Below, one piece after another: positions 25,783 through 29,747 of a stretch of 64,000 bases of DNA (the stretch's first letter is position 1; each line of letters opens with the position of its first letter). This DNA comes from Escherichia coli (GTDB lineage: Bacteria > Pseudomonadota > Gammaproteobacteria > Enterobacterales > Enterobacteriaceae). The notes under the pieces are model-generated. The model made no database searches. It was not told the DNA's origin and saw only the letters and a list, made by a program, of their open reading frames with translations. Made by a program: the position numbers and the translations under genes. The stretch lies in NCBI RefSeq assembly GCF_003334305.1, contig NZ_QOWS01000019.1; one strand, given 5' to 3'.

Positions 25783-26345
25783 CAGACTGTGATTTATTTT
25801 AACAAATCAATAGCTTTCATAAAATTCTCGAAGCTGAAAGCTTAACTGAACCAACCAGCCTGGCTGGTGTTTTCTAAAGACAAAAAGGCCATCAGCAAAA
25901 CACTGATAGTCTGAATCACCTTTATCAATCATGTATGAAGAAAATATGCGCAATTAGTTGACAGTGATTATCATTTTCATTAAAAAGAGCGCGTAGCATT
26001 CTTATTTCATGAGGAAATTTACCCGCCAACAACCTGAGTAGCGAAAGCTGTTCATCCCCAATATTTTTGCTGGCGGGTTCTTTTTTCTACTGTCCTCCTC
26101 CCCAGAGGAAGCATTCCCATTAATCATTACTGGCGAGGAGGCAAGAGAAAAAGTCGGTTCTTTGTCCCTAAATAACAGCATCATTTCAGTCCATGCAAAA
26201 TCTGATTTACCAGCTCACATAATAACCTGATGATACACAGTGTAAGTTCACAGAGATATTGCAATTGCCTCCGGATAAGTAAGGGGAGATTGCACTATGC
26301 AAATGCAGCACCTGAGGTTGGCTATCCTAAGCAGCCGATTATGCG

Positions 26346-27396: not shown

Positions 27397-28631
27397 GGCT
27401 GGTGATGAAGTCTCTTTATCAGGAGATCTGATCAAGAGACAGCCGCGCAGGGGGATTCACTATGCTGGATTCTTTTAACAAATTCTCCGCTAACCAAAAA
27501 ATAGACTTTTTGCATTCGTAAATGCGTTAAGAGATAATTTTTAAAGTTCCATCAATCTCCCGGCCAGTTCGTCTCGCGGCATTACTCACTATCCGCACAA
27601 CTTCAGTAAGATCATGACTTTTTCAATCGTTATCTGTTGACCAAGCTTTGAAACCACTAGCGTCCCGTCAACCTGACCTGGAATCGTCGAGAACCGCCCA
27701 TAGTTGTGAATTGGCTAGAGTGTGATGGAAAGCAACGCTAAACGACCTAGTCACACATTCTCTTTTCCCTAACAATGACCATTTAGTGAAATAACGTATC
27801 CAAAATGATGACGTGAAAGCCTGATACTGGCAGCGAAAAGCCGAAAAAACTCACCTGGTCAGGAGCAAAAATCGGATTATTCGCCAACAGCGTAATATCA
27901 GCAGTAGTTCTCGACACGCTTGCGCTATAGACAGAGGATGAAACGCTGCTGGTCGGAGTTCTCTATACATTTTTGGCGACGGCAGAACCGCTCACCAATG
28001 CCTTAACGTCTATCAGCCTTCCGGTGAGTTGGAACAGCATGCTCAGCGTTTGCAAGATATTCTCCACGGTCTGTAGCAGCGTAGGTTTCAATTTAAATAT
28101 CCCCAGATAGCCCTCTGGGAGCTTCCCTTTTTATTAAGTTTTAATTACCGTTGCAATAGTTAAATGATATTGGTAATTATTATCATTAGCATTTGTGTCT
28201 GTGTTGTTTCTGGTAAGGCTGAAAGGGAACAAACATCGCCTGTACAACGGCGTTTTTACTTACAGACCAGCGAAGGCGAGACTATCAGGATGATGCATCG
28301 TGTGTCTAAGAAATCACGGTTCTTTCCAGATTCGTTGTTCGGTCTAACACTGCACAAATGCGTCAGAACATCCCGGCGTAGCTGTCCGACGCCATTTGGG
28401 CTGTTCAACAGGACAATGGCGCGTAAGCGTTAATGGAAGTGGGGATACGGAGTTCCCTGTTCACCTGTGTATGTCACGGAAAAGTCTCTGACTGAGCTGT
28501 CCATAACGCTGGTGAAGCACAAATGGCGCAGCATCTGGTAAAGCAGGTTTAACGAAAAGTCGTGTCCTGCTGCTGGCATATGAGTGCGTCGACTGCCTGA
28601 TTTAGATCGTCAAGCGGAGAGGGATTTTCTC

Positions 28632-29747
28632 ATGCGTATTTTGTTTGTAGGCCCGCCTCTCTATGGGCTGTTGTATCCTGTGCTGTCTCTGGCGCAGGCA
28701 TTTCGCGTTAACGGTCATGAAGTGCTGATCGCCAGTGGAGGACAATTCGCACAAAAAGCGGCAGAGGCCGGGTTGGTGGTGTTTGACGCCGCACCCGGTC
28801 TGGATTCCGAAGCTGGTTACCGCCACCATGAGGCACAGCGGAAAAAAAGTAATATCGGAACCCAAATGGGCAACTTCTCATTCTTCAGCGAAGAAATGGC
28901 CGACCATCTGGTGGAGTTTGCCGGACACTGGCGGCCTGACCTCATCATCTACCCTCCGCTCGGAGTCATCGGGCCGCTGATTGCCGCCAAATATGATATA
29001 CCGGTCGTGATGCAAACCGTAGGCTTCGGCCATACCCCCTGGCATATCAAGGGTGTAACGCGTTCGCTCACGGACGCCTATCGTCGCCACAATGTGGGGG
29101 CCACACCACGTGATATGGCCTGGATCGACGTAACACCGCCGAGTATGAGCATTCTGGAAAACGACGGTGAACCCATTATTCCGATGCAGTACGTCCCGTA
29201 TAACGGTGGCGCGGTGTGGGAACCATGGTGGGAGAGAAGGCCCGAGCGTAAACGTCTGCTGGTGAGTCTCGGCACTGTCAAACCGATGGTTGACGGCCTT
29301 GATCTAATCGCCTGGGTTATGGATTCTGCCAGTGAGGTCGATGCCGAGATCATCCTGCATATTTCAGCCAATGCGCGGTCCGATTTGCGCTCGCTGCCGT
29401 CAAATGTTCGCCTGGTTGACTGGATACCCATGGGTGTCTTCCTCAACGGCGCAGATGGTTTCATTCATCATGGCGGAGCAGGCAATACCCTGACAGCGCT
29501 ACACGCTGGTATTCCACAAATCGTCTTCGGCCAGGGAGCCGATCGCCCGGTAAATGCCCGCGTTGTTGCCGAACGCGGCTGCGGGATTATCCCTGGCGAC
29601 GTCGGCCTGTCGAGTAACATGATCAATGCTTTCCTCAACAATCGCTCACTTCGCAAAGCCTCTGAAGAGGTAGCAGCGGAAATGGCGGCGCAACCCTGCC
29701 CAGGTGAAGTGGCGAAAAGCCTGATCACAATGGTACAGAAAGGGTAA
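28632..29747 (+). CDS. iroB: IroB, enterobactin C-glucosyltransferase (salmochelin synthesis)
   Basis: Glycosyltransferase-family ORF; start set at MRILFVGPPL, preceded by a GGAGAGGG ribosome-binding site (371 aa). Confidence 0.9.
   Translation: MRILFVGPPLYGLLYPVLSLAQAFRVNGHEVLIASGGQFAQKAAEAGLVVFDAAPGLDSEAGYRHHEAQRKKSNIGTQMGNFSFFSEEMADHLVEFAGHWRPDLIIYPPLGVIGPLIAAKYDIPVVMQTVGFGHTPWHIKGVTRSLTDAYRRHNVGATPRDMAWIDVTPPSMSILENDGEPIIPMQYVPYNGGAVWEPWWERRPERKRLLVSLGTVKPMVDGLDLIAWVMDSASEVDAEIILHISANARSDLRSLPSNVRLVDWIPMGVFLNGADGFIHHGGAGNTLTALHAGIPQIVFGQGADRPVNARVVAERGCGIIPGDVGLSSNMINAFLNNRSLRKASEEVAAEMAAQPCPGEVAKSLITMVQKG

Follow-up and report, generated by a model that had tools for sequence, protein, structure and literature searches.

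The siderophore salmochelin allows pathogenic Escherichia coli and Klebsiella to evade the host's lipocalin-2. The gene for the salmochelin C-glycosyltransferase, iroB, is the first gene of the iroBCDE operon and is in wide use as a virulence marker, and its regulation is commonly summed up as 'Fur-repressed'. Here, we describe the DNA upstream of iroB in a stretch of 64,000 nucleotides (nt) from E. coli (contig NZ_QOWS01000019.1 of assembly GCF_003334305.1), hereafter called the window. In the annotation of 100%-identical plasmids by the NCBI Prokaryotic Genome Annotation Pipeline (PGAP), the iroB coding sequence occupies 28632-29747 on the + strand with its ATG at 28632-28634, and homologues of the gene were found. 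The window represents a ColV-type E. coli virulence plasmid. About 1 kb around the Fur box upstream of iroB recurs at 100% identity in hundreds of such plasmids, and CFT073 and similar strains carry it at about 91% identity in their chromosomal iro island.

Fur control of this operon has been described for the CFT073 allele by chromatin immunoprecipitation sequencing (ChIP-seq) (Banerjee et al. 2020, mBio, PMC7157518), in which a single iroB peak of height 1125 was centred at NC_004431.1:1208113. The motif under that peak is given as GCTAATGATAATAATTACC in the supplements of the same paper. In the CFT073 fur mutant, iroB RNA rose 512-fold, followed by iroC (194-fold), iroD (28-fold), and iroE (20-fold), and c1255, which shares a common ChIP peak with iroB, rose 8.6-fold (PMC7157518). 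The deletion of ryhB left iroB RNA and protein unchanged in that background, with 512-fold induction in the fur mutant versus 416-fold in the fur ryhB double mutant (PMC7157518). For Salmonella enterica, an iroB promoter with a Fur box was reported by Baumler et al. (1996, Gene 183:207), as cited in PMC6071977. Two further systems combine Fur repression with control exerted through the 5' untranslated region (UTR). The Fur-repressed iron-uptake genes shuA (chuA) and shuT of Shigella and E. coli carry a 5' UTR RNA thermometer, according to PMC5458455 and works cited there, and the 5' UTR of iroN is activated by RyhB (Balbontin et al. 2016, as cited in PMC7157518).

In the window, positions 28166-28190 are with high probability the iroBCDE operator, overlapping the predicted promoter and followed by an untranslated leader of about 440 nt that is conserved and partly structured and may have a tuning role.

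The Fur operator upstream of iroB

The 22-mer GATATTGGTAATTATTATCATT occurs a single time in the window, at 28166-28187 on the + strand. An earlier note on this DNA had picked out the same element as the best Fur-like sequence upstream of iroB; the element is real, and its placement at about 28175-28196 was wrong by 9 bases. When scored against the 19-bp Fur consensus GATAATGATAATCATTATC, two overlapping boxes emerge (28166-28184 and 28172-28190), each matching at 16/19 and together forming an operator at 28166-28190. The boxes are phased by 6 bp, which is typical of Fur hexamer arrays, and the segment counts as a Fur box under the definition used (a GATAATGATAATCATTATC-like 19-mer or at least three phased GATAAT-like hexamers). 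Matches with at most three mismatches are rare by chance: 100 dinucleotide shuffles gave an expectation of 0.02 per window. The window itself has 13 strand-matches, distributed over 9 places, and 8 of these places lie beside iron- or colicin-related genes.

The distance to the iroB ATG is 466 bp from the start of the operator and 442 bp from its end, so that the figure of roughly 440 bp given in the earlier note was right. Between the operator and the gene (28191-28660), the best Fur match is only 11/19, at 28444, and none reaches 12/19. There is therefore no credible weaker Fur site closer to iroB, a possibility that the earlier note had allowed for and that is not borne out. The operator itself is almost invariant across genera. 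The CFT073 motif GCTAATGATAATAATTACC is the reverse complement of window positions 28172-28190, and the published peak region (1208004-1208237, PMC7157518) corresponds to about 28063-28296 of the window, which stops short of the iroB start. The Fur site of iroB as such is thus ordinary and already known, having been mapped in CFT073. Term searches of the main text of PMC7157518 returned no comment on the distance between box and iroB or on the leader.

Conservation of the operator and leader

The operator is followed by a homologous leader of 370-510 nt in at least ten iro lineages, including the plasmid and chromosomal loci of E. coli, Citrobacter, Klebsiella, an Enterobacter hormaechei plasmid, Raoultella, and Mangrovibacter. 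Relative to the iroB ATG, the operator lies at -462 in CFT073, -499 in Citrobacter, -500 in chromosomal Klebsiella, -487 in Raoultella, -453 in Mangrovibacter, -509 in locus L024, and -372 to -390 in a lineage of the Enterobacter type, to which the E. hormaechei plasmid belongs. The same spacing classes recur in 52 metagenome contigs, and genera whose IroB proteins diverge by as much as about 20% still share the long-leader architecture. Homology between genera starts only about 15-40 bp upstream of the predicted -35 hexamer (at about 28123-28150), which makes the predicted promoter the left boundary of the conserved module.

Within the window, the putative leader spans 28188-28631 on the + strand. 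Its 5' part (28197-28330) is variable, being poorly conserved and largely deleted in loci L015 and L028 and in Mangrovibacter. From about 28400 onward the leader is conserved, and the final 25 nt are invariant.

Three kinds of loci have a homologous operator much closer to the gene, at 62-78 bp from the ATG: Salmonella (L012-14), K. pneumoniae ATCC 13883 (L005), and a metagenome contig (L044). These short variants join the operator to the iroB ribosome-binding site, each with a different length of the leader 5' end. The metagenome contig has the TTGCAA...GATATTGGTAATTATTATCATT arrangement of the window, after which some 30 nt from the 5' end of the leader and some 10 nt from its 3' end remain, and roughly 390 nt from the middle are missing; the 5' piece is slightly longer in K. 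pneumoniae and shorter in Salmonella. The different junctions suggest that a long ancestral leader was shortened by internal deletions more than once, independently, in the short-leader forms. Moreover, the short variants would place the promoter within the shared operator segment. Salmochelin production is established for Salmonella and hypervirulent K. pneumoniae generally. The three Salmonella loci, which adjoin a YadA-like gene, need not be representative of serovar Typhimurium or Typhi.

Six more distant iroB homologues (L009, L010, L011, L023, L025, and L026, which include Enterobacter sp. BIGb0383, K. spallanzanii, Shimwellia, Pantoea, and Kalamiella) had no Fur match above 13/19 within 1 kb and no leader domain. 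Their upstream intergenic regions are long, and some of these loci are divergent from an enterochelin-esterase gene.

A structured RNA domain in the leader

An alignment of ten leader sequences was folded with RNAalifold, which predicts a conserved multi-hairpin domain of about 115 nt at 28403-28515 on the + strand. It comprises three short hairpins (28403-06/28411-14, 28418-22/28427-31, and 28439-44/28455-60, the last with the loop AUACGGAGUU) and a long irregular stem (28461-73/28502-15) that encloses 28477-79/28497-99 and 28483-86/28490-93. In this structure, 20 pairs are changed on both sides, compared with 9.8±2.3 in shuffles (none of 500 as high) and with 4-7 when the 3' partners were slid as a control. 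Because the structure came from the same alignment, a column-shuffle control that preserves gap and conservation classes was added for alignment columns 131-300. The consensus energy was -22.7 kcal/mol versus -5.4±2.1 kcal/mol in the shuffled alignments (z=-8.3), and 16 compensatory pairs were counted where 2.0 were expected. After removal of near-duplicates, the 8 remaining sequences still gave z=-5.9; the lineage set behind these statistics is small.

The consensus fold of the opposite strand reaches only -10.6 kcal/mol, and many pairs of the domain switch between G-U and G-C or A-U, both of which assign the structure to the RNA of the iroB sense. A covariance model of the domain found it in 24 loci, with 93% of the cells paired, and detected no further copies in the window or in the iroB loci that lack the long leader. 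Compensatory evolution of this kind argues that the fold is under selection. As judged from the alignments, the leader is not junk spacing, and in many Enterobacterales it has been passed on along with the operator.

An alternative is that the leader is a functionless neutral relic, the remains of an older gene or insertion, and that the long spacing is a historical accident. Salmonella, K. pneumoniae, and the metagenome contig L044 do without some 390 nt of it, and in some lineages its 5' third varies or has been deleted. The folding energy of the single sequence is also unremarkable, and the 3' part of the leader shows no excess of consensus structure (z=-0.16). A relic would nevertheless be expected neither to keep the pairs of its central domain by compensatory changes, on the sense strand only, nor to persist in the same architecture between genera as far apart in IroB as those compared above, and we regard this explanation as improbable.

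Predicted promoter and start of iroB transcription

The promoter of iroB is predicted to lie on the operator itself. A -35 hexamer TTGCAA is predicted at 28151-28156 on the + strand, paired with a -10 hexamer that is either AATTAT (28175-28180, with an 18-bp spacer from TTGCAA) or TATCAT (28181-28186), both of which sit within the Fur operator. These predictions come from conservation and from a relaxed sigma-70 scan, for which at least 8/12 matches were demanded, with A2 and T6 required in the -10 hexamer. On the iroB strand, the relaxed scan of 28100-28630 gave four candidates, all at 28151-28192 and overlapping the Fur box; they include TTGCAA-18-AATTAT and two pairs that use TATCAT. At the same threshold, no sigma-70-like pair was found on the + strand between 28193 and 28630.

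The hexamers are also conserved among the homologues. Among the long-leader homologues, only Mangrovibacter departs from TTGCAA (it has TTGTTA); of the short-leader loci, K. pneumoniae ATCC 13883 and L044 keep the hexamer and Salmonella does not. AATnAT at 17-18 bp from the -35 is kept in every homologue having this promoter, and TATCAT is nearly invariant. From the scan and the conservation we infer the exact -10 hexamer, as one of these two, and a transcription start at about 28187-28194. With iron, Fur-Fe2+ would occupy the -10 and start region (28166-28190) and block RNA polymerase; without iron, transcription would proceed from about 28187-28194 through some 440 nt of untranslated leader to the iroB ribosome-binding site.

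The suspicion raised in the earlier note, that the distal box is the Fur site of iroB and leaves an unusually long leader, is thus supported by four lines of evidence: the lack of a proximal site, the location of the sole promoter candidates at the box, the CFT073 ChIP-seq peak, and the conserved spacing with its short variants. Taken together, these lead to the conclusion that the long-leader interpretation holds.

Several observations weigh against it. A stricter standard promoter scan found no candidate on the iroB strand, and the predicted -35 and -10 hexamers are weak, with 4/6 matches each, under the threshold of that scan. A mapped iroB start in E. coli was not found in the open-access literature searched, for which reason the leader has been deduced from DNA evidence only. 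The ChIP-seq data have a resolution of about 100-200 bp and concern a chromosomal allele that is about 91% identical over the region, not the plasmid of the window. As for the leader RNA, the consensus structure and the covariation counts come from the same alignments, so that the counts are somewhat inflated, and the window leader alone has an ordinary minimum free energy (z=-0.93). Finally, the variants that have lost about 390 nt indicate that the leader is dispensable for basic Fur-controlled expression.

It could also be proposed that an inner promoter nearer to the gene drives iroB, and that the distal box controls a divergent c1255-like transcript or a separate non-coding RNA. The shared ChIP peak and the 8.6-fold rise of c1255 in the fur mutant (PMC7157518) fit such a target, the distal hexamers are weak as noted, and the start assigned to them is a candidate. 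Yet the interval 28193-28630 offers neither a Fur-like site of at least 12/19 nor a sigma-70-like pair of at least 8/12 on the + strand, and a 512-fold effect of Fur with a single peak on the distal box (PMC7157518) is hard to explain by an inner promoter. Three natural variants, furthermore, fuse the distal operator directly to the iroB ribosome-binding site. The divergent open reading frame (ORF) that would be the separate target is disrupted in the window and lacks conservation beyond E. coli. We therefore hold an inner promoter to be very unlikely and retain the promoter at the distal operator.

Non-coding nature of the leader

The leader that would be transcribed from that promoter is non-coding. 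The ORFs within it are not conserved between the plasmid and CFT073 alleles, whose indels are not multiples of three, and indels of 1, 2, and many bases occur across the leader among genera. No gene is annotated in it in the 40 plasmid records listed of 588 matching or by PGAP. A search of 27700-28800 on both strands against Rfam 15 (cmscan, E<=1) gave no match to a family in the leader. The terminator scan found no intrinsic terminator or attenuator; a weak terminator-like hairpin with T5 at 28237-28257 is not conserved. In the searchable literature, which omits most subscription papers, no description of an iroB leader RNA, UTR, or thermometer was found.

That the leader encodes a small protein, for which an ATG-initiated ORF of 89 codons (28164-28433) with a hydrophobic N-terminus could be invoked and whose start within the Fur box would turn the box into a normal short-range operator, is scarcely credible: the same frame ends after 42 codons in CFT073, where the sequence shifts frame, indels of 1, 2, and many bases run throughout it in other genera, its ATG lies upstream of the predicted start site, and neither the listed plasmid records nor PGAP annotate it. 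IroP, a small Fur-regulated protein of the Klebsiella iro locus, was also considered, but it is encoded downstream of iroN and is unrelated to the iroB leader.

A mobile-element origin of the leader was rejected, as no extra plasmid copies were found except for one weak match of 73 nt (among chromosomes, the search covered the iro locus). That match, at 78% identity, pairs 28330-28402 with the non-coding positions 2501-2573 of locus L027, on the S. Muenchen plasmid CP075049.1, beside a YadA-like adhesin gene. Other weak plasmid matches to the leader, at 60-80% identity, were counted.

The ribosome-binding region and possible post-transcriptional inputs

The leader ends in a ribosome-binding region at 28614-28635 (+ strand) that is invariant in all long-leader homologues and contains the Shine-Dalgarno (SD) sequence GGAGAGGGA at 28616-28624. 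A hairpin is predicted here in which 28614-21 pairs with 28627-31 and 28633-35 (GCGGAGAG / UUCUC.AUGC), covering both the SD sequence and the AUG. At 37 C its energy is -6.8 kcal/mol, which is not better than that of shuffles (z=-0.56). Covariation is lacking because the region is invariant, and the hairpin is absent from the short-leader forms.

GGA motifs are found both in the structured domain and at the SD sequence. A conserved loop A(N)GGA lies at 28447-28451 (GGA at 28449), the SD region carries GGAs at 28616 and 28622, and further conserved GGAs occur at 28411, 28435, and 28478. The total of 9 GGAs in the leader is no enrichment over the 8.5 expected by chance, and the open-access literature searched yielded nothing that connects iroB with CsrA. 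Binding of CsrA and a thermometer at the SD/AUG hairpin are accordingly put forward as hypotheses for what the leader might do.

If the leader RNA acts, it would modulate expression after initiation, through translation, stability, or read-through versus premature termination. The compensatory changes indicate a selected fold and the natural deletions indicate that the leader is not essential, which together favour a modulatory or tuning role over an essential one; post-transcriptional tuning is our best guess. We tentatively suggest, as an idea that is more doubtful than the long leader as such, that the domain at 28403-28515 and the invariant SD region form an undescribed conserved cis-regulatory RNA. 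In E. coli, Klebsiella, Citrobacter, and Enterobacter, it would put a second, post-transcriptional input alongside Fur in the control of salmochelin synthesis, and it would have been lost by deletion in Salmonella and in K. pneumoniae virulence lineages. The signal might be a global RNA-binding protein of the CsrA type acting at the loop and SD GGA motifs, temperature, or a metabolite.

Three other inputs were considered and rejected. Pairing with RyhB, as for iroN, is disfavoured by the chance-level complementarity of the iroB leader (36% of shuffles are as good, versus 1.3% for the iroN UTR used as a control) and by the lack of a ryhB effect on iroB in CFT073 (PMC7157518). An RfaH/ops (JUMPStart) leader was dismissed since no ops element GGCGGTAGnnTG occurs in 28100-28650 at up to one mismatch; elsewhere in the window, GGCGGTAGnnTG has three matches, equal to the chance expectation. 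For a Rho-utilisation tract, G equals or exceeds C in 12 of the 15 scanned 78-nt windows, and the C excess is at most 6 points, at about 28292-28420, which leaves no clear candidate for a C-rich rut tract.

Other Fur-like sites and neighbouring features

The annotation of an identical plasmid puts iss, insertion sequences and phage remnants, iroBCDE, and iroN in the window, as well as a 3-deoxy-D-arabino-heptulosonate 7-phosphate (DAHP) synthase gene, the colicin V genes, and colicin Ia. The iroN operator lies at 38236-38260 on the - strand and combines a 15/19 match (38236-38254) with a 14/19 match (38242-38260), about 95-118 bp upstream of the iroN ATG at 38142 (- strand). The 19-mer at 38236, AAGAATGATAATTAATATC, is identical to the iroN ChIP-seq motif of CFT073 (PMC7157518). 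The well-placed Fur box that the earlier note had seen at the iroN promoter is therefore real.

Further Fur-like sites lie elsewhere in the window. A 17/19 box at 41736-41754, about 300 bp upstream of the start of cvaA (colicin V export) at 42056, gives a second example in the window, after iroB, in which a Fur site and its presumed target gene are far apart. Boxes of 17/19 are also found at 40081-40099 upstream of the DAHP synthase gene (38997-40031, - strand), at 46163-46181 upstream of cvi/cvaC (45589-46114, - strand), and at 51988-52006 upstream of the colicin Ia gene (49997-51877, - strand). The chromosomal DAHP synthase isozyme c1220 is Fur-regulated in CFT073 (PMC7157518). The 19-mer GTTATTGATTATTATTATC (16/19) occurs twice, at 40981-40999 and 49555-49573, each time about 45-100 bp upstream of a small DUF6404-family gene (40591-40884 and 49254-49511, - strand), and this arrangement suggests a duplicated plasmid gene that may be Fur-controlled. 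One 16/19 site, at 25960-25978, has no obvious target; it is located downstream of iss, among remnants of phage lysis genes and an integrase pseudogene.

Upstream of the iroB promoter, the remnant of a divergent ORF for a hypothetical protein of 99 amino acids (WP_000805228.1 in CFT073) occupies 27799-28095 on the - strand and is interrupted by a stop codon in the window. This ORF may correspond to c1255. The remnant falls outside the conserved iro module, because cross-genus homology ends just upstream of the promoter. Positions 27804-28073 are 76% identical to part of the E. coli plasmid NZ_AP022088.1, where an amino acid adenylation domain protein is annotated, and this match may give a hint of where the DNA next to the iro module, on its upstream side, came from.

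Implications

What is new here is the conserved, structured, non-coding leader between the operator and iroB in most iro lineages, together with the observation that the experimentally studied Salmonella locus is without it. Regulatory conclusions drawn from Salmonella may thus not carry over to extraintestinal pathogenic E. coli (ExPEC), avian pathogenic E. coli (APEC), or ColV plasmids. For the design of reporters, it should be considered that a fragment of 200 bp upstream of iroB would hold no promoter. A defined RNA element, with natural deletion variants that can serve as controls, makes a second regulatory input into siderophore production testable. As a cis-acting leader RNA of an iron-uptake operon, it offers a modest but concrete lead.

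Comparison with known systems

The shuA and shuT genes resemble iroB in that Fur control of the promoter is combined with a cis-acting RNA element in the 5' UTR of a horizontally acquired iron gene, and a hairpin over the SD sequence and AUG is predicted for iroB as well. The shuT UTR, in the data taken from PMC5458455, measures 42 nt compared with about 440 nt for iroB; moreover, no FourU or ROSE match was returned for the iroB leader by the Rfam search, and the iroB hairpin is no stronger than chance. The iroN leader belongs to the same gene cluster and is likewise Fur-repressed, and the post-transcriptional leader control described is that of iroN; complementarity to RyhB is better than chance in the iroN UTR (1.3%) and not in the iroB leader (36%). 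By the tests made, the iroB leader matches neither the shuA/shuT thermometer nor the RyhB-activated iroN leader.

Salmonella enterica iroB has a homologous operator (ATATGGTAATAAGTATCATTATCATTT) and a homologous ribosome-binding site (GAGAGGGATTTTC). In the Salmonella loci, however, the box is 62 bp from the ATG, the leader of about 400 nt and its structured domain are absent, and TTGCAA is not conserved. The CFT073 locus is the nearest match. Its operator 19-mer, GGTAATTATTATCATTAGC, is identical to that of the window and occupies the same position, -456 to -462 relative to the iroB ATG, and the leader beside it is about 91% identical; the two differ in that the CFT073 copy belongs to a chromosomal island and the copy in the window to a ColV plasmid.

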